NCBI GenBank assembly: GCA_038845865.1 | Contig: JAWBQJ010000004.1 | Coordinates: forward strand, 77,689 to 141,688 | From: Desulfurococcaceae archaeon | GTDB taxonomy: Archaea; Thermoproteota; Thermoprotei_A; Sulfolobales; Desulfurococcaceae | Reading direction: 5' to 3' | DNA length: 64,000 nucleotides | In this document: positions 1 to 63,171 of the stretch, piece by piece | How positions within the stretch are numbered: position 1 is the first letter of the stretch | Layout of the letters: the number at the start of each line of letters is the position of its first letter | Notes under the pieces: model-generated | Told to the model about the DNA's origin: nothing | The model's input: the letters and a program-made list of their open reading frames with translations, nothing else | Databases searched by the model: none | Translations under genes and position numbers: made by a program

Positions 1-136
1 GTGGAGAACCTAGCTACTAAGCCCATGTTTTCTCTGTCTCTCTTGTAGGATTGTTTTGAGACACTTAGTATTGATGCTTATTTAATGGGTTGTATGTGTT
101 GTGTAGGATTGTCGCTACTAGTTGTCTTATGTGAGC

Positions 137-409
137 TAGAGGTTGGAGCTGTTATTAGTACTTAGTGCTATTATTATGCATATTGTTGTAGGTATAATCC
201 GTTGAGGCCGTGTTCTGCTATTGAAATTAGTGATACCTATTAGTGGCGTTATTGTTCCACCTACTATTGTGATTGTTGCAGCATGTGCTCTTAGGTAGAA
301 ATATTGTAGTTTTAATATACCTACTATTTCGAATACTCCTCCTAATCCTAGTTAGGATTATACCGGTTGTTTTTAGTATCTCTGTGAGTATGTTGATACC
401 CGTAATCAC
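137..409 (-). pseudogene. mrpG/mnhG-like paralog, apparent frameshift (AT-rich copy)
   Basis: Minus-strand translation from GTG at 409 gives MITGINILTEILKTTGIIL, matching the N-terminus of the window's own MrpG (14356..14760, MLEWILIVVGEILVIIGAV). The homology then continues in another frame (LGLGGVFEIVGILKLQYFYLRAHAATITIVGGTITPLIGITNF versus LLGAVGMLRFPNFFVRLHALTVGTIGGAFVPLIGVTLIAL). The frame switch falls around 335..355 with no homopolymer. Local GC is about 35-40%. Confidence 0.45.
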
Positions 410-448
410 TTTTTATCCCTCTCGTAGTGTACCATGAGATGTAGATGT

Positions 449-655
449 CTAAAGTGTGTATGCCCATAGTGCTATTGGGATCATGCATACTGCGAGGATA
501 TGCCTACTTGATAGTGATATCATAGCCATGAATACCGCTAGATCATAGCTCAGTGTATCAATAGCTAGTACTCGGTCAAATACTCTTGATCCACGCATAA
601 CTCCGTATAGGAATAAGACGGCTGAGAGTAAATAGAGTATGATCATGGCCTCCAA
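449..655 (-). CDS. MrpF/MnhF-like Na+/H+ antiporter subunit paralog (low-GC copy)
   Basis: The 68-aa hydrophobic ORF aligns to the mrpF of the mbh operon at 14735..15019 (AIDTLSYDLAVFMAMISLSS...IALWAYTL versus AVDALSYDMAVLLAVLSVLF...VLMLWAYAL). It sits directly upstream of the mrpG-like remnant on the same strand, as in the main operon. Confidence 0.55.
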   Translation of the reverse strand: MEAMIILYLLSAVLFLYGVMRGSRVFDRVLAIDTLSYDLAVFMAMISLSSRHILAVCMIPIALWAYTL

Positions 656-956
656 TAGTGGTTTTACAAATGATCTTCCCTGCCTTTCCCGGGAACTGAA
701 TTCTTTTTAATGGATTCTTGTTTTATACAACAGCCCTATCTTCTTTCCTCGGTGAAATGTCCACGAGACCACAGTATTCGAGATGTGAATAGTCTCAATC
801 CTCCTCACATAGTTATTACCTCGATGAGTAGGCCTACAGGGGTAGTAGCCCGAAAGCCTCGCCCCTTCAAGACAGAGAGAAAACCAGCCCGAGAAACCCT
901 ATTGCTGCAAAAACTTTATTAATATTCATAGTCAACATTATTAAACACTGAGACTC

Positions 957-2471
957 GTGGAAACGGAGTTGAACATGACCGAGACTAAACCCGAGTTGAA
1001 ACTATACGAGAAACTACTTATGATCTTTCCTGGGTACCGTGGATACAAGGAAAAAGAGCTAATAAGAGAAACCGATAAAATAGTCCGAGAGCAACTATAC
1101 CGGAGACTAAAGAACATCATTAACATACTTAGAGATATCCAAGTTGACCTCTCATCGAGAAACAAAATCACCGATGCCCTCGAGATAGAGAGACTAGTCT
1201 ACAGCATAGATACAATAGCAACTAGAACAAAACACGCTCCACACGGGTACAAACCACTATTCTACGTAGTCAAAGTAGATGAAAAAGACTTATCAAAACT
1301 ACTAGAACACGACCTCTCCCTCAGCGAAATAATTGATAAACTAGTAAAAGCAACCGAGACACTTAGAGAGAAAACAACGCGTGGAGAAGACATCAAAGCA
1401 AGTATTAGAGAGATACAAGTCAAAGCTGGCAGAAAGAGACAACATAATCACAAGCACAGGTGTAAGACAATGAGCAAGAAAACAAATGTAATAGAATGGG
1501 TTAACCCAGGACCAGATGACATACTATGGGTATACCCATACGAAGATATCAGATGGGGTAGCATAATAGTAGTGAAAGAGTACGAAGTAGCAGTATTCAT
1601 GCGTGATGGAAAAGTATACGATGTCCTCCCACCCGGTAGACACATGATTACAACACAGAATATACCACTATTAACAAGAGCATACAACCTAGTAATGGGA
1701 TACGGGGAAACACCATTCAAAGCAAACATAGTCTACGTCTCACTAAAGCAATTCAGAGGGAGATTTGGATTATCAACGAGAGTTAAGCTAGGTCCAAGAA
1801 CATTATACATGACAGAGCTACAAGCATATGGAGAATACTGGTTTAGAATAGCAGACCCAGTGTTATTCCTAACACAAATAGCTGGAGCAGTGCAAAGAAT
1901 AGATACACAGAGCGTAACAGAGTTCCTGAGAGGATACATGGTTCAAAACCTAATAGAACAACTCAGCAACTACACAGCTATAGATGTCTACTCAAGACTA
2001 GGCGAAGTAGTATCAAAGATAAAAACGGGAATACTATACGATGCCTTCAAAAGCAGAGGAATAGAGCTAATAGATATACGAGTATCAGGAATATCACTAC
2101 CACAACTAGAGAAAATGGAGAAAGAAGACCCAACATATGGACTACCACTACTCCTAGCAATACAGAAAGGAGATGAGGACAAGGCACTTGAGATCATTAG
2201 AACGGTTGAGAGCCTGAGAGCCCTTGGAAAAGCACCAGGAGCGGGGATACTAGGAGCATTAATAGCAATGCCAGGACTACTACAACCAATACAACCAGCA
2301 CCGCCTCAACAACCACCCCCGCAACCACAGCCAACACAGCCACAGCAACCATCAACAAGCATAGCTGACAAACTACGAGAACTCAAAAAACTCCTAGATG
2401 ATGGATTAATAACACAAGAAGAATACGAGGCAATGAGAAAGAAGATCCTCGAGGAGTTCACGAGGAAATAG
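957..2471 (+). CDS. SPFH/band-7-like (Band_7_1-type) domain protein with PQ-rich linker and C-terminal SHOCT domain
   Basis: 504-aa ORF with a probable real start at ATG 975 (MTETKPE...). The central region (VNPGPDDILWVYPYEDIRWGSIIVVKEYEVAVFMRDGKVYDVLPPGRH...) fits the SPFH/Band_7_1 pattern. The C-terminus (DKLRELKKLLDDGLITQEEYEAMRKKILEEF) is a typical SHOCT motif. The N-terminal ~170 aa are coiled-coil-like. GC is about 38%. Confidence 0.6.
   Translation: METELNMTETKPELKLYEKLLMIFPGYRGYKEKELIRETDKIVREQLYRRLKNIINILRDIQVDLSSRNKITDALEIERLVYSIDTIATRTKHAPHGYKPLFYVVKVDEKDLSKLLEHDLSLSEIIDKLVKATETLREKTTRGEDIKASIREIQVKAGRKRQHNHKHRCKTMSKKTNVIEWVNPGPDDILWVYPYEDIRWGSIIVVKEYEVAVFMRDGKVYDVLPPGRHMITTQNIPLLTRAYNLVMGYGETPFKANIVYVSLKQFRGRFGLSTRVKLGPRTLYMTELQAYGEYWFRIADPVLFLTQIAGAVQRIDTQSVTEFLRGYMVQNLIEQLSNYTAIDVYSRLGEVVSKIKTGILYDAFKSRGIELIDIRVSGISLPQLEKMEKEDPTYGLPLLLAIQKGDEDKALEIIRTVESLRALGKAPGAGILGALIAMPGLLQPIQPAPPQQPPPQPQPTQPQQPSTSIADKLRELKKLLDDGLITQEEYEAMRKKILEEFTRK
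2282..2352 (+). repeat. degenerate CAACCA/CAGCCA tandem repeat encoding a Pro/Gln-rich linker
   Basis: Sequence ccaatacaaccagcaccgcctcaacaaccacccccgcaaccacagccaacacagccacagcaacca encodes PIQPAPPQQPPPQPQPTQPQQP. This low-complexity stretch lies between the SPFH and SHOCT domains. Confidence 0.6.
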
Positions 2472-2484
2472 GTGAACTAAGAAA

Positions 2485-3513
2485 ATGGCGTGGAAAATAT
2501 GGAAAAACGAGACAGAGAGATTTGAAGAGGAGATGAGAAAAGCATTTGACAATAGAAATAAAAATAAGATCGAGAAAGCAATAGAGCACTTCGCGAACGC
2601 ATATAAAATAGCAAATAGCTCCAGTGACCCAAGCCTACGCGAGAAAGCAAGAATAGCGTATGCATACATGTTAATATACAACGCTATACAATACAAAAGC
2701 ACCGATATACTTAAAAATACCTTTGAATACCTAGCAAGTCTACCAGGAGACATCGAGCTCGACCTAGCACTACCAAGACCAGTAAAAGTAGGTGAACTGG
2801 TAGAAGACTTCAAGATCCTCAGCTTACTCTCATCTATACCAAGCATAGAGCTCGAGAACGCATCAAGTATCAACCTCGAAGAAGCGAGGAGAATAAGAGA
2901 AGTCGGAGAGTACCTATTATCAAAAGGAAGCAAAAGACTAATACTAGAAGACATATTCAACATTAAGGAGCCAATGAATATAATTGCCTTGAGACTACTA
3001 GGATACTCAAAGCTAATAGAAGCCACTCACATTGAAAAAGAAGATCTAAACAAAAGCATAGAGCTATACGCGGAGGCACTAGTATACTTCCAACAAGCAG
3101 CTGATAAAATAGCAAGCAACGTGATGACAAAGATAGAGAAACTAGGCAAGGCAACAAAGTGCTGGATATGTGGTAGAGCTATACAAGGCGAGGACGTGAA
3201 CTTCATATACCTTGATAGCTTTCTCACAAAGTACATCGTTGAGAAATACAGCGGTGACGCCCCTGGAATACTGATATCTGAGCATGGAAAAATAGCAACG
3301 TGTAGTGCGTGCTATGGTGTCATATATAACTTAAGCGATAAAATAGCGAGACACTACTATCAAGAAGCAATGAAAGCACTAAGAGAACTTGAACAAAGAC
3401 TCCTTGCAATAATAAGTCAATTACAAGCTCAGATAAACATGCTACAAACACGAATAACAAGCATAGAGTCATCTATCTCATCACTAAGAACAACCATAAT
3501 GTTCAAAAGGTAG
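2485..3513 (+). CDS. hypothetical protein, helical N-terminus, internal C4 zinc ribbon, C-terminal coiled coil
   Basis: 342 aa, starting 14 nt after the previous stop. It has a CxxC...CxxC unit (CWICGRAIQGEDV...CSACYGV) followed by a heptad-like tail (LRELEQRLLAIISQLQAQINMLQTRITSIESSISSL). I recognise no family for it. Confidence 0.55.
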   Translation: MAWKIWKNETERFEEEMRKAFDNRNKNKIEKAIEHFANAYKIANSSSDPSLREKARIAYAYMLIYNAIQYKSTDILKNTFEYLASLPGDIELDLALPRPVKVGELVEDFKILSLLSSIPSIELENASSINLEEARRIREVGEYLLSKGSKRLILEDIFNIKEPMNIIALRLLGYSKLIEATHIEKEDLNKSIELYAEALVYFQQAADKIASNVMTKIEKLGKATKCWICGRAIQGEDVNFIYLDSFLTKYIVEKYSGDAPGILISEHGKIATCSACYGVIYNLSDKIARHYYQEAMKALRELEQRLLAIISQLQAQINMLQTRITSIESSISSLRTTIMFKR

Positions 3514-3519
3514 AACACA

Positions 3520-4980
3520 GTGACAATCGTAGTAGAGAAGCTTAGATGCACTAATTGCGGGGCACCACTACCACAACTAAAACAAGGAGAGTCCTTTATA
3601 AAATGCGACTACTGTGGCTTCATAAATCGCATATATGACTCAACAACATACATGGAACAATTAAAAAGAGAGATATCCAAGTGGATCTCCCAGATACTAC
3701 CACAATATACATCTCTATCCACGATAGCGGACCCCGTTGCAAGACATCATCTATTCCAAGGATATGTAAAACCAAGACTAATCCCAATAAGTGTAAATGC
3801 TAAGACAACATACATAGAGACAATACACAAGCCCTTCATAGCGCTCAACCCCATATACAGCCAAGCATGCAAAGAGCCAAAATCACTATTCGAAGAGTCT
3901 ATTAAAATAGAAAGTGTATCAGAACTAGCTATAAGCGACGAAGATAAATCATTCATTAGTGATACACATCGATATCTCACCGTATCCGCTTACATATGCA
4001 ATGCATTAATAGACGCCAACGAAGAGAAATACACCGAGAGCGCGAAGAACATTGATGAAGCATTACGATACCTAGAAAACACCGAGGATAAAACCCTAGT
4101 AGCAAGGTTGAAAATCGCGAAGTCCACATACACAGCATTAAGCGAACTATATAATAAAAACACACAGGCATCGCATAGCTTAATCGGGTTGGCACTCTCA
4201 CAAGTAAACGAGCTATTAAACATGAAGGAGGCAGCATCCAAGCCCAAATACCAAGGTGCACTAGAGATCGAGAGAGACCTTATCAACTTAGTAAAGAACA
4301 TTATTGAAATATCCAATATATACTTCGAGAATGGACTAGATCCGCTAACCCCAGCTCCAATAATAAAGAAAATACTTACATACATAACTCGCAGCGTTAA
4401 AGACCATAATAGACCATTAAAAGACGCAGTAGAGGTTATTACCCACTGCAAGAAAACTATCTTGTCAAGATTTAGAAGAGCCAGAGTCAAAGTGCTCGGA
4501 GAGGGAGATACATACCTCCCATTCTACGTTGTGGGCGTAAGTATAACTTATACATCTGGGTTACTTTTCAAGAAAGGGCATGGATCGAGGATAGATCTAT
4601 TGATCTCCGCTGCATTCCCAACTCTACCAGCTATAAGCGACGTATTCGGACTATACACGGGTAGATTAGTAAACCTGGAGAAAGAAACTGACAAACTAGA
4701 ATCAATAAGTAGTCTCCTTGAAAACACTAGAGAAGACTACCTCGGTAAGAACACAGTCCTACCATTAATATCACATGTAATAGCTGAAAGCATGATTGAT
4801 AAGTACCTTGAATACATCGGAGCCAGGTATCATGGTAAGATAAAACTATCAACAACACAGGCAAAAGAGGATATTATATATGTGGGTTGTATGCTAGATA
4901 AAGGAGGTTTCAAGCCCTCTATACCACTAACTCCTTTAAGCAGTATTGATTATAATGTATTAAAAGAGATTATGGTGTAG
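3520..4980 (+). CDS. hypothetical protein with N-terminal zinc ribbon
   Basis: 486 aa, starting 7 nt after the previous stop. It opens with a CxxC-x17-CxxC ribbon (CTNCGAPLPQLKQGESFIKCDYCGF). The rest is predicted alpha-helical with no recognisable catalytic motif. Confidence 0.55.
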   Translation: MTIVVEKLRCTNCGAPLPQLKQGESFIKCDYCGFINRIYDSTTYMEQLKREISKWISQILPQYTSLSTIADPVARHHLFQGYVKPRLIPISVNAKTTYIETIHKPFIALNPIYSQACKEPKSLFEESIKIESVSELAISDEDKSFISDTHRYLTVSAYICNALIDANEEKYTESAKNIDEALRYLENTEDKTLVARLKIAKSTYTALSELYNKNTQASHSLIGLALSQVNELLNMKEAASKPKYQGALEIERDLINLVKNIIEISNIYFENGLDPLTPAPIIKKILTYITRSVKDHNRPLKDAVEVITHCKKTILSRFRRARVKVLGEGDTYLPFYVVGVSITYTSGLLFKKGHGSRIDLLISAAFPTLPAISDVFGLYTGRLVNLEKETDKLESISSLLENTREDYLGKNTVLPLISHVIAESMIDKYLEYIGARYHGKIKLSTTQAKEDIIYVGCMLDKGGFKPSIPLTPLSSIDYNVLKEIMV

Positions 4981-4984
4981 TTTC

Positions 4985-5332
4985 ATGGTGTTAAAGATAA
5001 GATTTATACACGACTTCATAGTGTTTACTATATGCCTAGTGATTGGGGTAGCCCTGACATATGTCTACCCAGTTGCACTCTCGATAGCTATATTCATACT
5101 ATTCTATGGCTCCTGGCTACTAATAACGAGCTCTATAACGCATATAGAGCATGTATATGCATTAAATCCACGTGTCGCCAGGTCCTCTCTGGCATCAATA
5201 CTGGTGTTGATATCAACATTGGTTATTTTAAGAGCAATACATCTCGAAATAAGGCTCGCATTGATTACGTTTTTAATCGTATTGATGATTCTAGCTATAT
5301 ACGTATACTACTTATCAAAACGCAGTAGATAA
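4985..5332 (+). CDS. small integral membrane protein (3-4 TM)
   Basis: 115 aa with several long hydrophobic segments and a basic C-terminus (YYLSKRSR). It starts 5 nt after the previous gene. I prefer it over the overlapping +2-frame ORF 5032..5328, which is not protein-like. Confidence 0.5.
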   Translation: MVLKIRFIHDFIVFTICLVIGVALTYVYPVALSIAIFILFYGSWLLITSSITHIEHVYALNPRVARSSLASILVLISTLVILRAIHLEIRLALITFLIVLMILAIYVYYLSKRSR

Positions 5333-5433
5333 GTGGAAAGCAAATTAATAGTTCACCAGGCTATTTCATTAGATAAACTTAAACAATACTTACCACTACA
5401 CTATGTGAATAGCATACGAGTGAGTAATGTTCA

Positions 5434-5508
5434 CGGGCCCGCCGGGATTTGAACCCGGGTCCTCCGGCTCCGCAGGCCGGCGCCCTATCCTGGCTAGGCG
5501 ACGGGCCC
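5434..5508 (-). tRNA. tRNA-Arg (anticodon GCG)
   Basis: Reverse complement is GGGCCCGTCGCCTAGCCAGGATAGGGCGCCGGCCTGCGGAGCCGGAGGACCCGGGTTCAAATCCCGGCGGGCCCG. It has a 7-bp acceptor stem, a CCGGC/GCCGG anticodon stem with loop CUGCGGA (anticodon GCG), and a GGGTTCAAATCCC T-arm. No CCA is encoded. Confidence 0.9.
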
Positions 5509-6882: not shown

Positions 6883-7068
6883 GTGCCAATAACTGATCCG
6901 GAGCTACTGAAAATAGTTTCGGCGAGAGTGCTGAATAGGTACGTGTGTAGGCGTTGTGGCGCGCTGAACCCTCCAGGCGCGACTAAGTGTAGGAGGTGTA
7001 AATCCAAGGGCACCCTCAGGCCGAAGAAGGCGCTTAAGGCCGGTCCAAAGGCCACAAAGACAGCGTAG
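6883..7068 (+). CDS. rpl40e: 50S ribosomal protein L40e
   Basis: [49 protein letters not shown] has the C4 zinc-ribbon pattern of archaeal L40e (compare Sulfolobus MPLTDPAKLQIV...ICRKCGALNP...ATKCRRC). The ORF uses a GTG start. Confidence 0.88.
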
Positions 7069-7084
7069 CCCGTAGTAGGCCGTA

Positions 7085-8074
7085 TTAAGCATGTTCACCG
7101 GCTTCGTCACGTATATTCTTAGGTCTCTTTAGTAGTACGAGTAGCCCTATCAATACCGGCACAAAGAAGTACAGCACGCGGTAAGCTACTACGGTATCCG
7201 CTGGAAGCGCTAGTGATAGGCCGTACTCGGCAACCCCACTACCACCCGGGGTCGGTAGGATGCTAATAGACTGCATCAAGTAGTAGGCGGACACGGATCT
7301 CCATAGAAGCCCCATAACGCCGGAATGGGCAACCTCGCTACACGGTATGAGAGGTATTAGTGAAACCGACCACAAGGTGTGCACGAGAAATGTCAGTGCC
7401 CAGGTCAAGGCTTTCAGCTTAGTGGTCACCCTTGACGATACCTCGGTATAATGCCCTTTAAACCGGGTAAGGGGGTACACCAGCTTGTCGAGGTATTTAC
7501 CGACTAGCGACCCCTTCACGCGCTTACTACCAAAAATTCTCCTGCACAAGAAGCCCGTGATCTTGTCAAGGCTACTGAACACGACGATCCAGAGAGCGCC
7601 TGCAGACACCGACGTGATCAGCACTGGTAAGCCGAGTGGCATGTAGTTTAAGCTCACTGCAGCGCCCATCGCGCACGTCAAGATCACGTCGAAGTACACC
7701 TCGTAAATTGCGAGCGCGTAAGCTTCAAGGAAACTCAAACCAGTCCTCGTGGAGATGTAGTATGCTCTCGCAGGTTCGCCGCCAATGGAAGATGGCGTCA
7801 TCTTCGCCAAGACATCACCAGCGAATCGGGCCTTAACGCACACTCCAAGCGAACACCTTAACCCGGGCTTAAATGCCCGGAACAGGAGCTTCAACCTGAT
7901 GGCGGAAACAAACCACCCGGCTAGTAGTAATGCCGCGGAGAGCAGTACGCCGCAGACCGTGACATTTAGAGCACGGACGTTCATCAGGGTCGAGTACGCT
8001 AGGAGCACCGTTACAAAGATGATCGTGGTTGCCGCGAGCCTCCTCGCGAGCCCCCTTAAGCCTACCTCGTTCAA
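7085..8074 (-). CDS. polytopic membrane protein (flippase-like / UPF0104-type)
   Basis: 329 aa with about 8 predicted TM helices. The family assignment is tentative. Confidence 0.45.
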   Translation of the reverse strand: MNEVGLRGLARRLAATTIIFVTVLLAYSTLMNVRALNVTVCGVLLSAALLLAGWFVSAIRLKLLFRAFKPGLRCSLGVCVKARFAGDVLAKMTPSSIGGEPARAYYISTRTGLSFLEAYALAIYEVYFDVILTCAMGAAVSLNYMPLGLPVLITSVSAGALWIVVFSSLDKITGFLCRRIFGSKRVKGSLVGKYLDKLVYPLTRFKGHYTEVSSRVTTKLKALTWALTFLVHTLWSVSLIPLIPCSEVAHSGVMGLLWRSVSAYYLMQSISILPTPGGSGVAEYGLSLALPADTVVAYRVLYFFVPVLIGLLVLLKRPKNIRDEAGEHA

Positions 8075-8185
8075 CGCTTAATACCTCAACACGTTTATTA
8101 GGGTACTAGGCGCGTATCACTATATTCACGGATAGCTCTTATAGAAGGGGCCGGGTTATGAGCTTTTAGCTATAATGAAGAGCAG

Positions 8186-9295
8186 TTGGAAAAGTTAAAA
8201 GTAGATAAGCAAATGCTACGCGAAATCATAAAGGAGCTCGCAAAGTGGAAAGCTCACGCAACTGTACTGTTAAGCCTGTACATACCGCCGGGAAGGCCCA
8301 TAAGCGACGTCTTAGCCCTGCTCAGGCAGGAAATATCCGTAGCTGACAACATAAAGCTGAAAAGAACTAGAAATGCCGTAGAGTGGGCCTTAAACGTCGC
8401 ATACGATAGGTTGAGTAAAGTACCAAAGACGCCCGAAACAGGGCTAGTCCTCTTCGCCGGCATGAACCCCGACACCGGTGAAACGATAGTACTGATGCTC
8501 GTACCGCCCGAAAAGGTCCCCATATTCTTCTACAGGACAGATAAGTACTTCCACACGGAGTTTCTCGAGGAAATGGTCTCTGAGAGCAGTGTAGCCGGGT
8601 TGCTGATCGTGGAAAGGGACGCGGCGACAATAGGCTTGCTTAAAGGTAACAAGTTAGAGGTGGTCGAGGAGCTTGAGGCCTACATTCCCGGTAAACACCA
8701 CAAAGGTGGTCAGAGCCAGAGGAGGTTTGACAGGATAATAGAGCAGATGGTCGAGGAGTTCTACAAGAAAGTTGGTGAACGCGCTAATAGCGTATTCCTG
8801 CCACTACTCGAGCAGGGCAAGCTCAAGTTAATAGTCATTGGAGGCCCCGGATACGCTAAGCACGACTTCGTTCACGGAAACTACCTAGATTACAGGCTCC
8901 TGCAGATCACCGCCTCCCAGCTCGTCGACGTATCTTACCAGGGAGAGGTCGGGTTGAGAGAACTTATTTCCAAGGCGGGGGACATCCTCGAGGAGTACGA
9001 GTACGCTGACTCCATGAAGTACCTGGAGGAGTTTAAGTACCACCTGGCAAAAGATGACGGGCTAGTAGTTTACGGTGAGGAGGAGGTGAAGCTGGCGCTA
9101 GAGCAAGGACTACTAAAAACACTACTACTAGGTGAAACAAGAGAGGACTTAAGTCAGTGGCTTGAAGCCGCCTCTAGAGTCGGGGTAAAAGTCGTAGTTA
9201 TAGGTAAAGACCTCCCTGAAGGGGAGTGGTTCAGTAGAACTTTCAACGGGGTAGCCGGTATTCTGAAGTTTAAAGCGGGAGGAGCTAGGTCTTAG
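8186..9295 (+). CDS. prf1: peptide chain release factor aRF1
   Basis: Contains a GGQ motif (KHHKGGQSQRRF) and a NIKS-like loop (NIKLK), and the eRF1-family domain order. The ORF track starts at TTG 8186, and an in-frame ATG lies 9 codons downstream. Confidence 0.85.
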   Translation: MEKLKVDKQMLREIIKELAKWKAHATVLLSLYIPPGRPISDVLALLRQEISVADNIKLKRTRNAVEWALNVAYDRLSKVPKTPETGLVLFAGMNPDTGETIVLMLVPPEKVPIFFYRTDKYFHTEFLEEMVSESSVAGLLIVERDAATIGLLKGNKLEVVEELEAYIPGKHHKGGQSQRRFDRIIEQMVEEFYKKVGERANSVFLPLLEQGKLKLIVIGGPGYAKHDFVHGNYLDYRLLQITASQLVDVSYQGEVGLRELISKAGDILEEYEYADSMKYLEEFKYHLAKDDGLVVYGEEEVKLALEQGLLKTLLLGETREDLSQWLEAASRVGVKVVVIGKDLPEGEWFSRTFNGVAGILKFKAGGARS

Positions 9296-9377
9296 GTACG
9301 TGGCTTTAGGAACGAAGCGAACGCCGCCAACGAGCTCGGATCTTCCCGGTGTAAACGGTGCTCCTCGGCGCATTAGA

Positions 9378-10445
9378 CTAGCCGAAGAGGGCTGCGTGCG
9401 TGAAAGCGAGGATCAGAGCTATTATCGAGGGTAACAGGCCGTACTTCATCACCAAGGCTATTCCCTGCTCTATTCTCCTACGGCCATACGAGGCCCTGAC
9501 CCACGTCAGTACGAACAGCACTACGAGGAACTTAACTATCAGTAGCGCGGCCCCCTCGAAGCTCAAGTGCCTGTAGGGGTAGGGCCCTCCGATGAACACG
9601 TACGTTATCAGGATGGCAGAAAACGCGAATTTAACGTCATGTGAGAGATTGTATAAAGCCAACACGCTCCCCGAGAACTCGGTCATGTGACCCGCTATAA
9701 GCTCTTGCTCTGCTTCGGGTATGTCGAAGGGCTTGAGGCCTAGCTTAGCCTGCGTGGCCACTATCATCGATAGCAAGGCTAGAGCCATCGACGCGAACGA
9801 CAGGGGAGAGGCTAACCAAGCCCTCCACGAGTTCGTAGCTGCACACGTGACGGAGTATGGGAGATCGCAGTGAGGCGTTAGTACCACCATCGGTACCAGG
9901 ATCGAGCCGAACACTACTGGTTCCACCACCACCGTTAACGCTATTAGCCTCGACAAGCCGGCGATGACGAAGGGGTTGGGGTAGGCTAAGACTGCTAGTA
10001 ATATCCCGGTGAAGTGCCACACCGCGTAGAGGTATACTAAGACGATGACATCGTAGGGAGCAGATAGCCTTACCGGCGATATTGGCAACAATAGCATTGA
10101 GGCTATGACGGACGCTATTGATATTCCCAAGCCTACTTCTGCCAGTAGTGTTGACGAGTATTTCTGCTTTTTAACTTCCTTGGCTAGAAGCAGCTTTAGC
10201 AGATCCGCCAGCGGCTGGAGTAGCCCTAGAGGGCCTGTATACGACGGCCCCATTCTATTCTGCATCCTAGCCGTGGCCTTTCTGTAAAACCATTCACCGA
10301 AGAGCGCTAGCGTGGCTGAAAATACAAGTCCTGGAAATACCAGCACCGCGAATATAGTGTAGAGGAGCTCGCTCACCAAGGGCCTCACCAAACCACGTAA
10401 ACGATCAGCGCTATTAACGCTATGAGCAGCACCAGCCCGAGCCAC
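9378..10445 (-). CDS. mbhM: NuoH/MbhM-like membrane subunit of the Mbh-type complex
   Basis: 355 aa and polytopic, with NuoH signatures (RMQNRMGPSYTGPLGLLQPLADLLKLL). Confidence 0.85.
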   Translation of the reverse strand: MARAGAAHSVNSADRLRGLVRPLVSELLYTIFAVLVFPGLVFSATLALFGEWFYRKATARMQNRMGPSYTGPLGLLQPLADLLKLLLAKEVKKQKYSSTLLAEVGLGISIASVIASMLLLPISPVRLSAPYDVIVLVYLYAVWHFTGILLAVLAYPNPFVIAGLSRLIALTVVVEPVVFGSILVPMVVLTPHCDLPYSVTCAATNSWRAWLASPLSFASMALALLSMIVATQAKLGLKPFDIPEAEQELIAGHMTEFSGSVLALYNLSHDVKFAFSAILITYVFIGGPYPYRHLSFEGAALLIVKFLVVLFVLTWVRASYGRRRIEQGIALVMKYGLLPSIIALILAFTHAALFG

Positions 10446-61993: not shown

Positions 61994-62067
61994 AGCACTA
62001 GAAACGGGTATGCGAGGTAAAAGTTAAAAAGAGTGTTAATTGAAGAGTTAGTAGTCCCCGTTTACCG

Positions 62068-62238
62068 TTACTCCTTAACTGGCCCTAGTATTCTGGCGAA
62101 TTTCTTGCCAGTGTATGGACTAACCGCGAAGGCAATCTTTATTTTGCCTCTCTTCGTCTCCTTCACTACGACCTCGTACTTGTCTGTTTCAAAGTACTGC
62201 TTTGCCTTTAGGTCGAAGAACTTTAGTTTCTCGGGCAT
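62068..62238 (-). CDS. unannotated 56-aa lysine-rich small protein, Cren7-like
   Basis: The minus-strand ORF ATG...TAA encodes MPEKLKFFDLKAKQYFETDKYEVVVKETKRGKIKIAFAVSPYTGKKFARILGPVKE. Its C-terminal half aligns to Cren7 (RGKIKIAFAVSPYTGKKFARI versus [19 protein letters not shown]). It is below the 60-aa cutoff of the ORF track, and a TATA-like ttaaaag lies about 45 nt upstream. Confidence 0.45.
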   Translation of the reverse strand: MPEKLKFFDLKAKQYFETDKYEVVVKETKRGKIKIAFAVSPYTGKKFARILGPVKE

Positions 62239-62619
62239 GTCCTTCACCCATTATTCAACATTATTCTTTACTACCTGTGCTTTTAAGCTTAATTTTTTGC
62301 TTACACCTTATCCACGTGCACACTTTAATATAAAAAATAATGTAAAAGTAAATAATATTAATATTATGAAGAAGCCGTATTCAAAGTTGGATCGCGTAGC
62401 GCGAAAAATAATCTCATATGTAGATTATTATTAGGTGTCATTGAAAAGTGTAGCATTACATTGAACTAATAGCTACCATTAAGCTGGAGATATTACATTC
62501 GTTTTGTATAAAAGCGTTAGATCGTCGAAACGGGGCGATGCAGCCTCCTTGAGGTAGCGTAACTTGCCCTATAATCGGTAATTAGTTTATGCAGTGAAAT
62601 TAGTAGATTTAATATGTCA

Positions 62620-63171
62620 TTAAACATTTAGCTCTTCGTAAGCTGGCTCTTTCTTGCCGATAATGTCGCAGACCCCGAGACTATCGTAAACAATAACCGT
62701 GTATTTCACCTCGGCATTTTTAGCCTTCCCCAATAGAGATGATAGTTCACTACACTTGTCCCTTGGCGCGTCTTCTTGTTCGCAGAGGTAGTTTAATGCA
62801 TAGATGAAGTCTAGTATAAGGCCCTCTATGGTCGTAATGTAACCTTGAGAGCTTATGCCCGGTTCTACGGTGAGACCTAGCTCTGGAATTTCAATTTTAC
62901 AGGTAGAGCTTTTTACTAGTAGGGCGTTTTCATCTCCTGGTTCCTCGACCCTGTATACTATCTTCCTCGGATTGCTCTTACCTAGGACCAGGACATCCCT
63001 ATGCTTGAACCCGCAAGAAGGGCATTCCGCGGTAGATATGATTACATCGCCGTAGTATGCAATACTGTACTTGTAGTCCAGAACACGTAATTCGTAACCG
63101 CAAAGAGGGCATTTCGATGTGTACTCTGCTAGTTTTTCAGGCACCTCTCCACAGCACATAATTAGCACCAC
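62620..63171 (-). CDS. ZPR1-like zinc-finger protein
   Basis: Contains a CPLCG...CPSCG zinc-ribbon pair followed by a beta-rich domain, as in archaeal ZPR1 homologues. Confidence 0.5.
   Translation of the reverse strand: MVLIMCCGEVPEKLAEYTSKCPLCGYELRVLDYKYSIAYYGDVIISTAECPSCGFKHRDVLVLGKSNPRKIVYRVEEPGDENALLVKSSTCKIEIPELGLTVEPGISSQGYITTIEGLILDFIYALNYLCEQEDAPRDKCSELSSLLGKAKNAEVKYTVIVYDSLGVCDIIGKKEPAYEELNV

Follow-up and report, generated by a model that had tools for sequence, protein, structure and literature searches.

Organisation of the locus

We analysed a stretch of 64,000 nucleotides (nt), called the window in the following, from the genome of a Desulfurococcaceae archaeon (assembly GCA_038845865.1, contig JAWBQJ010000004.1, positions 77,689 to 141,688 of the forward strand). 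Near its left end, four open reading frames (ORFs) on the plus strand form a compact module built around a soluble SPFH protein. Gene 1 (957-2471) encodes 504 amino acids (aa) and consists of the remnant of a gene A (957-1469) joined to a gene B (1470-2471), the latter encoding the SPFH protein. Gene 2, here named C (2485-3513, 342 aa), and gene 3, named D (3520-4980, 486 aa), encode proteins with zinc ribbons and TPR-like regions, and gene 4, named E (4985-5332, 115 aa), encodes a small polytopic membrane protein. The four ORFs lie where a preliminary description of this DNA had placed them and are closely packed as it said. The untranslated gaps between them are 13, 6 and 4 nt, the spacings of 14, 7 and 5 nt given earlier being coordinate differences.

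Shine-Dalgarno-like GGTG motifs are found 6-10 nt 5' of the internal start codons. Because of the short gaps, these motifs and an ATGA overlap of A and B in close relatives, the locus is predicted to be one operon, as had been proposed. It is conserved as a whole in two archaeal phyla and, also as proposed, has no enzyme recognisable in Pfam scans. An A/T-rich, TATA-box-like element, TTTATTAATATT (915-926, plus strand), read by eye from the sequence, lies approximately 30-45 nt 5' of the first start codons and is a candidate archaeal promoter of the operon. The module is held by a low-GC island (1-5400, GC content ~0.40 vs ~0.50-0.53), the right edge of which is marked by a tRNA-Arg(GCG) gene (5434-5508, minus strand). 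Its nearest database records are metagenome-assembled genomes (MAGs) of Desulfurococcaceae. Four of the five proteins of the module (all but B) are without a Pfam family, genes 2-4 giving no significant Pfam match.

Origin of gene 1

Relatives of the window show A and B as separate genes. Four near-identical MAG contigs (L005, L006, L007 and L009 in our numbering of loci), with an identical gene-2 protein, carry a gene of 172/178 aa whose stop codon overlaps (ATGA) the start of a 333-aa Band_7_1 gene. Likewise, the metagenome contig L094 carries an intact A of 178 aa (99% identity) and directly after it a B of 333 aa. In a DNA alignment of the window with the four MAG contigs, two differences appear: one substitution, and a deletion of 20 nt in the window between 1417 and 1418, where the relatives carry AGAAATAACAAGACAATACG and where imperfect ATAC(A/G)AG repeats lie on both sides. 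The deletion puts A into the Band_7_1 frame, residues 1-154 of gene 1 corresponding to the conserved helical partner of ~178 aa and continuing through a 17-residue out-of-frame linker into B. The original C-terminus of A (...KLAERDNIITSTGVRQ and stop codon) is still legible in the other frame of the window, and both the start codon of B (ATG at 1470) and the GGTG 5' of it are intact. The A region is also a stand-alone gene of ~180 aa, directly 5' of the Band_7_1 gene, in Desulfurococcus mucosus and a distant archaeal contig.

Judged from these alignments, gene 1 is to be read as a deletion-made fusion and not as a native multi-domain architecture. Since the 20-nt deletion fuses genes that are separate in relatives, the ancestral module comprises five genes, A (helical), B (SPFH), C, D and E, and not four as first described. 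Of the architecture ascribed earlier to gene 1, the SPFH/Band_7_1 core, the PQ-rich linker and the SHOCT terminus were confirmed by Pfam or by inspection, and the N-terminal coiled coil turned out to be a separate gene elsewhere. The deletion is either a strain variant or an assembly error, the sequence alone being compatible with both. Frameshift-type differences among these assemblies occur elsewhere too, which bears on the reality of the deletion: the aRF1 gene, intact in the window (8186-9295, 369 aa), is split in L005 (15823-16979) into pieces of 275 aa and 75 aa.

Proteins A and B

Protein B is a soluble SPFH protein of the YdjI/SamI type. The gene 1 product matches Band_7_1 (PF13421) over residues 196-383 with 102.6 bits (cutoff 24, E-value 3.1e-29), and Band_7_1 scores of B orthologues reach E-values of up to 3.5e-64. 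A match to Pfam Band_7 is also found. After the SPFH domain come a hydrophobic stretch rich in Gly/Ala, a PQ-rich linker and, at the C-terminus, SHOCT (PF09851; residues 471-498, 38.1 bits vs cutoff 27, E-value 1.2e-9). B has no transmembrane (TM) segment. By profile, its nearest solved relatives are prohibitin, stomatin and HflC, at E-values of 1e-3 to 3e-2. The C-terminal module of B is exchanged between lineages and may be SHOCT, double or triple zinc ribbons, or GYF_2; Methanomassiliicoccales and bacterial orthologues have a zinc ribbon where the window has SHOCT. Such exchanged C-termini were noticed in L107 (8549-9637), L139 (8542-9585) and L121 (8463-9575), with GYF_2 matched at an E-value of 1e-21 and a SHOCT-like tail seen by eye in the alignment. 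What precedes the exchanged module is the same throughout, namely the Gly/Ala-rich stretch and the low-complexity linker.

Protein A is distantly related to the NCBIfam family NF047596 (LIMLP_15305, 175 aa). Residues 33-155 of gene 1 match model positions 34-157 with 35.8 bits (E-value 7.2e-9), far below the equivalog cutoff of 210 bits, which makes A a distant relative and not an equivalog member. In the literature, Leptospira LIMLP_15305 is mentioned solely as a gene flanking a small RNA, without functional information. As read from the alignment, A has about four predicted helical segments set apart by Gly/Pro-rich motifs, and its invariant motifs are an N-terminal PGY(R/K)GYK...R..D...R and a central YGY.

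Proteins C, D and E

C is composed of a TPR-like helical domain (residues 9-221), a four-Cys zinc ribbon (226-276) and a C-terminal helix (274-341). D begins with a C4 zinc ribbon (8-37), followed by a TPR-like solenoid (41-317) and a C-terminal alpha/beta domain (320-486). The ribbon cysteines, C226/C229/C273/C276 in C and C10/C13/C29/C32 in D, are invariant across homologues. Structure models of both proteins are confident (predicted local distance difference test scores of 82.8 and 83.7, respectively) and give each of them a zinc ribbon plus a TPR-like solenoid; a long single C-terminal helix is found in C only. The zinc ribbons noted in genes 2 and 3 by the preliminary description are thus real, the remainder being TPR-like solenoid and not mainly coiled coil. 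Neither protein has a TM segment. The models point to C and D being protein-interaction scaffolds rather than enzymes. A Foldseek search returned nothing at an E-value below 0.5, and no structural relative of the C-terminal domain of D was detected. C and D were also considered as paralogues, a relation rejected at an hhalign probability of 1.7%.

E is the sole membrane-integral protein of the module. It has three hydrophobic segments in the window and four TM segments in most orthologues, in line with the 115-aa protein with three to four TM segments described before. No Pfam or other family match was obtained. A LiaI/LiaF-type or DUF2207_C-type membrane domain was considered and rejected, the sub-threshold matches being scattered over 2-6 of the 37 members.

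Distribution and gene order

Word-indexed searches with C and D retrieved Desulfurococcaceae/Ignisphaera-type sequences only, plus one distant match, and a profile including distant members extended the reach to Methanomethylophilaceae. An exhaustive profile search with D among 1.84 billion representatives gave 179 D-family clusters, 78 of them at an E-value of 1e-30 or below. The named members that were looked up are all archaeal (Thermoplasmata, Thermococcus sp., Desulfurococcaceae). A scan of one genome per species confirmed 123 D-encoding loci. The best 80 of these 123 come from Desulfurococcaceae/'Sulfolobales' MAGs, Zestosphaera, many Methanomassiliicoccales and one Methanospirillum, and a few carry bacterial bin names. 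Eight contigs (L023, L025, L026, L027, L029, L053, L055 and L067) belong to bins labelled Bifidobacteriaceae, Firmicutes CAG:194, Ruminococcus, Bacteroides, Lachnospiraceae, Dialister or Bacteroidaceae. They carry the Methanomassiliicoccales-type cassette, at an identity to the query similar to that of contigs labelled Methanomethylophilaceae, and are probably mis-binned archaeal DNA.

Gene orders were scored over all loci by hidden Markov models of the five families. The order C-D-E-A-B, the Methanomassiliicoccales type, was found at 55 loci. The Desulfurococcales type A-B-C-D-E was found at four loci, and at three more as A-B-C-D with E below threshold; the one order is a cyclic permutation of the other. 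Two untruncated contigs, L035 and L068, have C-D only, and the remaining loci are truncated variants. The genes therefore recur together and are not unrelated singletons; since the flanking genes differ between lineages, the cassette is a conserved unit. In L035 and L068 (both Methanomethylophilaceae, 7000-9530), C-D is kept with no E, A or B within 8 kb 3' of it; in L035, D is followed by unrelated ORFs, the first of which looks by eye like sfsA. In these genomes, C-D may persist on its own, or the SPFH core may be encoded at another locus. The Methanospirillum MAG (L082, 7011-11190) has the Methanomassiliicoccales-type C-D-A-B, with no E detected.

The pair of A and B reaches further than the cassette. 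A metagenome scan with an alignment of A gave at least 600 pattern matches, at least 401 of which were confirmed. B lies directly 3' of A at 67 of 67 genome loci with room for it and at 68 of 68 such metagenome loci, 80 loci having been kept of the at least 401 confirmed. A followed by B is the universal core of the family (135/135 loci with room, bacterial contigs included). Many A-B contigs are bacterial, as their high GC content and their FabF and PlsX neighbours indicate. The A and B of the window belong to this widespread pair (LIMLP_15305-like plus Band_7_1), with which they share the order, the tight coupling and the PGY(R/K)GYK and YGY motifs. Most other pairs, by contrast, and the bacterial ones especially, have no C and D. 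Their recurrent neighbours are E-like small polytopic proteins (13 loci), a protein with two TM segments, a winged-helix-like domain and a zinc ribbon, and DUF2207 membrane proteins. One archaeal-looking group has tandem proteins of zinc ribbon, alpha/beta domain and TM segment (ZnR-TM), in the order ZnR-TM, ZnR-TM, E, A, B. The zinc ribbon of D is homologous to that of these membrane-anchored proteins (hhalign 96%); homology of the C-terminal domain of D to them was rejected, as the zinc ribbon alone aligns significantly. Beside some A-B loci (L110, 379-975; L126, 9707-10297, minus strand) recurs an Arrestin_N-like beta-sandwich protein (Arrestin_N, E-value 1.5e-5) with a C-terminal zinc ribbon, by its predicted fold another trafficking-type protein near A-B. 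In the literature searched, we found no description and no functional study of the A-B pair.

Comparison with YdjI/SamI and proposed function

SPFH proteins are present in all domains of life. To our knowledge, YdjI/SamI is the only Band_7_1 protein that has been studied experimentally. YdjI/SamI is soluble and consists of an SPFH domain, a low-complexity linker and a C-terminal zinc finger. [quoted passage not shown] The preliminary description compared the module to pspA-ydjGHI (pspA-samGHI) of Bacillus. This comparison holds for B, which is of the same SPFH subfamily and has the same layout: both proteins are soluble, and in both Band_7_1 is followed by a low-complexity linker and a small module at the C-terminus. 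The latter is a zinc finger in YdjI as in the Methanomassiliicoccales orthologues of B; the window differs with its SHOCT. Both systems are compact, enzyme-free operons with membrane-integral partners and proteins that start with a zinc ribbon. YdjG is made up of zinc ribbons, an NTF2-like domain and a TM segment (PMC11237479), and going by that description the ZnR-TM proteins of other A-B loci parallel its layout of zinc ribbon, further domain and TM segment. D, in comparison with the same description, shares the N-terminal zinc ribbon but has no TM segment and has a TPR-like region of 280 residues. Unlike the membrane-anchored YdjG, the zinc-ribbon proteins C and D are soluble and have TPR-like solenoids, and A is an additional, obligatory partner without a Bacillus counterpart.

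B has no anchor, E is the only membrane protein, A is coupled to B, C and D have folds of the interaction type, there is no enzyme, and YdjI/SamI sets a precedent; together, these points lead us to propose that the locus may encode an SPFH membrane-stress scaffold that is related to the YdjI/SamI type but free of PspA, with E as anchor, C and D as adaptors and A as obligate partner of B. We give this analogy about an even chance of being correct. Its core would be two genes, a small soluble A, possibly of a four-helix type, translationally coupled to the soluble B. B would oligomerise via its SPFH domain into a ring or cage, to which the C-terminal SHOCT, or the zinc ribbons or GYF_2 that replace it in other lineages, may contribute, and A would bind B stoichiometrically. 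The polytopic E would bring the complex to the cytoplasmic face of the membrane, and C and D would join the A-B scaffold, E and clients. Thus assembled, the complex may sense or stabilise stressed membrane regions, as an archaeal, PspA-free counterpart of PspA-YdjGHI (SamGHI).

Several observations weigh against this proposal. The module contains no PspA or ESCRT-III gene, and none was found in the operon, the window or ~170 related loci by single-sequence phmmer with manually entered queries. A PspA- or ESCRT-III-like fold of the N-terminus of gene 1, which had been named as a point to check, found no support in any profile method used: profile searches against PDB built from 5 and from 80 sequences gave generic coiled-coil noise and no PspA, Vipp1 or ESCRT-III chain; Pfam scans of 80 members gave no PspA_IM30 or Snf7 match; and the hhalign probability of A was 1.7-2.9% against E. 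coli PspA and 0.2% against yeast Snf7 (reference sequences entered manually). On these profile results, A as a PspA/ESCRT-III protein was rejected. Nor is there an equivalent of the TPM-domain protein YdjH, TPM_phosphatase matching no protein of the module, and the Toastrack domain looked for in genes 2 and 3 was likewise not found. Apart from the zinc ribbon, no homology of C, D or E to YdjG/YdjH was detected, YdjG having been compared by description.

Alternative explanations

ESCRT-coupled membrane remodelling is the first alternative. In one version, Bro1- or MIT-like helical domains of C and D would bring in ESCRT-III filaments (CdvB-type) of the host; in the other, A would itself polymerise as a divergent protein of the ESCRT-III/PspA kind. 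Either way, the action would be at SPFH-marked membrane sites, in repair or vesicle budding. There is precedent for such a link, since YdjI recruits the ESCRT-III-family protein PspA in Bacillus (PMC8581546) and SPFH genes are linked to archaeal ESCRT loci, among them the 'Meth_adaptin' loci with a protein that combines SPFH, coiled coil and zinc ribbon (Makarova et al. 2024, PMC10936438). C gave a weak Pfam match to MIT (E-value 0.017) and a weak match to calpain-7. Both matches are far below the Pfam thresholds, however, and Foldseek, as said, returned nothing at an E-value below 0.5. A has no similarity to PspA or Snf7 at the profile level, the proteins of the module gave no Pfam match to Vps4/AAA or Snf7, and no Vps4 or ESCRT-III gene was seen in related loci with the probes used. 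The 'Meth_adaptin' loci resemble the module in being archaeal operons with an SPFH protein bearing zinc ribbons and with zinc-ribbon adaptor proteins, but going by their description they contain Vps4, ESCRT-III, adaptin-appendage and GOLD, none of which were detected here, and their clade is assigned to Methanobacteriales (PMC10936438) vs Desulfurococcales and Methanomassiliicoccales for this module. We consider ESCRT coupling unlikely, if the least so of the alternatives.

Alternatively, the complex might serve as a regulatory or chaperone cage around a membrane client encoded elsewhere, for example a protease, a channel or a part of a secretion apparatus, on the model of HflK/C-FtsH or stomatin-NfeD. 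SPFH proteins commonly cage membrane clients, C and D resemble scaffolds that bind clients or adaptors, and it is to prohibitin, stomatin and HflC that the profile of B leads. With the cage-forming SPFH proteins (HflK/C-FtsH, stomatin-NfeD, flotillin-NfeD, prohibitin), B shares the fold and presumably a membrane-organising role, yet the similarity is marginal (best E-value 1e-3). In contrast to them, B has no TM anchor, no flotillin domain and no long coiled coil that could form the wall of a cage. Neither within the module nor next to it is there a conserved gene for a protease, NfeD or a channel, and NfeD was absent from the module proteins and from the scanned representatives of recurrent neighbour clusters. 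Such a client cage thus seems rather improbable.

Low-GC island and mobility

Two further alternatives, antiviral defence and a viral remnant, turn on the genomic setting. The low-GC island noted by the preliminary description was borne out: the GC content is 0.39-0.41 over positions 1-5000 vs ~0.50 elsewhere. In a longer MAG contig, the low-GC stretch measures ~5.7 kb and extends from a tRNA-like fragment of 59 nt to the intact tRNA-Arg. The fragment (L006, 7270-7328, in direct orientation) lies just left of the window, position 1 of which is L006 7497. It resembles the 3' two-thirds of a tRNA, is 78% identical to tRNA-Arg(GCG) and has an anticodon-loop-like CCT. An intact second tRNA at the left end of the island was considered and rejected, as Rfam calls none there. 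This geometry is compatible with an old integration event, of which the fragment could be an att-site remnant. Against its flanks, the module has a GC content lower by 0.13 in the window's species and by 0.107 in Methanospirillum (L082), and in these only; over 78 loci the median difference is +0.0035, which points to a long residence in nearly all genomes. In L082, the deviation suggests that the whole module was recently transferred a second time, horizontally and to another order. The composition of the island indicates that the whole cassette was acquired horizontally by the window's species and moves as a unit. Within the island, 5' of the module, all related MAG contigs have a gene call for a hydrophobic ORF of 68 aa (449-655, minus strand), to which no family is assigned. 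The GC content drops to 0.40 a second time at 62001-63000 of the window, around a stretch that is largely non-coding from ~62000 to 62600 and is placed between a cysteine desulfurase-like gene (identified by eye) and a zinc-ribbon ORF.

An antiviral defence or abortive-infection cassette, with the SPFH protein as platform and the small membrane protein as effector, would fit the apparent mobility of the cassette, its island between a tRNA and a tRNA-like fragment, its deviant GC content in Methanospirillum and its patchy distribution; in the MAG contig, moreover, genes for a DNA methyltransferase and a KaiC-like ATPase are found a few kb 5' of the module. Against this stands the long residence indicated by the median over 78 loci. 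The module is present in dozens of species-level genomes of one order, Methanomassiliicoccales, and its flanks, which differ between lineages, are mostly housekeeping or metabolic genes. It encodes no nuclease, NTPase, protease or other effector-type enzyme. PADLOC-DB 2.0 gave no significant match and none at an E-value below 0.04 (best values 0.048-0.092; none at all for genes 3 and 4). We regard a defence function as quite improbable. Finally, the idea that an integrated virus or plasmid left the module behind as part of its structural or morphogenetic genes is largely refuted and very improbable: besides the tRNA-flanked island, only matches to PHROGs families of unknown function speak for it, and these are confined to the SHOCT tail, no viral module was matched, a search of 2.9 million viral contigs confirmed no relative of A or D, the island holds no integrase, capsid or replication gene, and D-encoding loci occur in more than 100 species in ordinary chromosomal contexts.

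Significance

The module is of a known kind, in which an SPFH membrane scaffold is joined by zinc-ribbon and membrane proteins. In the libraries and literature searched, we found no description of A as an obligatory partner, of the families of C and D, of the arrangement in five genes and its cyclic permutation, or of the absence of PspA. A bolder extension of the PspA-free scaffold proposed above is that A-B would be an ancient, hitherto unrecognised SPFH membrane-remodelling system of bacteria and archaea, with A as a new polymer-forming substitute for PspA/ESCRT-III and the archaeal C and D as Bro1-/MIT-like adaptors to ESCRT-III filaments. We hold this to be improbable. Bro1/Alix orthologues are reportedly not identifiable in Asgard archaea (PMC10936438), and if true, the extension would provide a prokaryotic precedent for the eukaryotic link of SPFH microdomains with Bro1/ALIX-ESCRT.

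The YdjI-type soluble SPFH subfamily has a different and universal partner, A, which lies 5' of B in every locus examined with room for it, in bacteria and archaea alike. Archaea have a version of five genes, two of which belong to new zinc-ribbon/TPR-like families. The module thereby offers a defined complex with which to test how SPFH scaffolds without an anchor reach membranes, and it allows a test of whether the link between SPFH scaffolds and membrane remodelling predates the split of bacteria and archaea.

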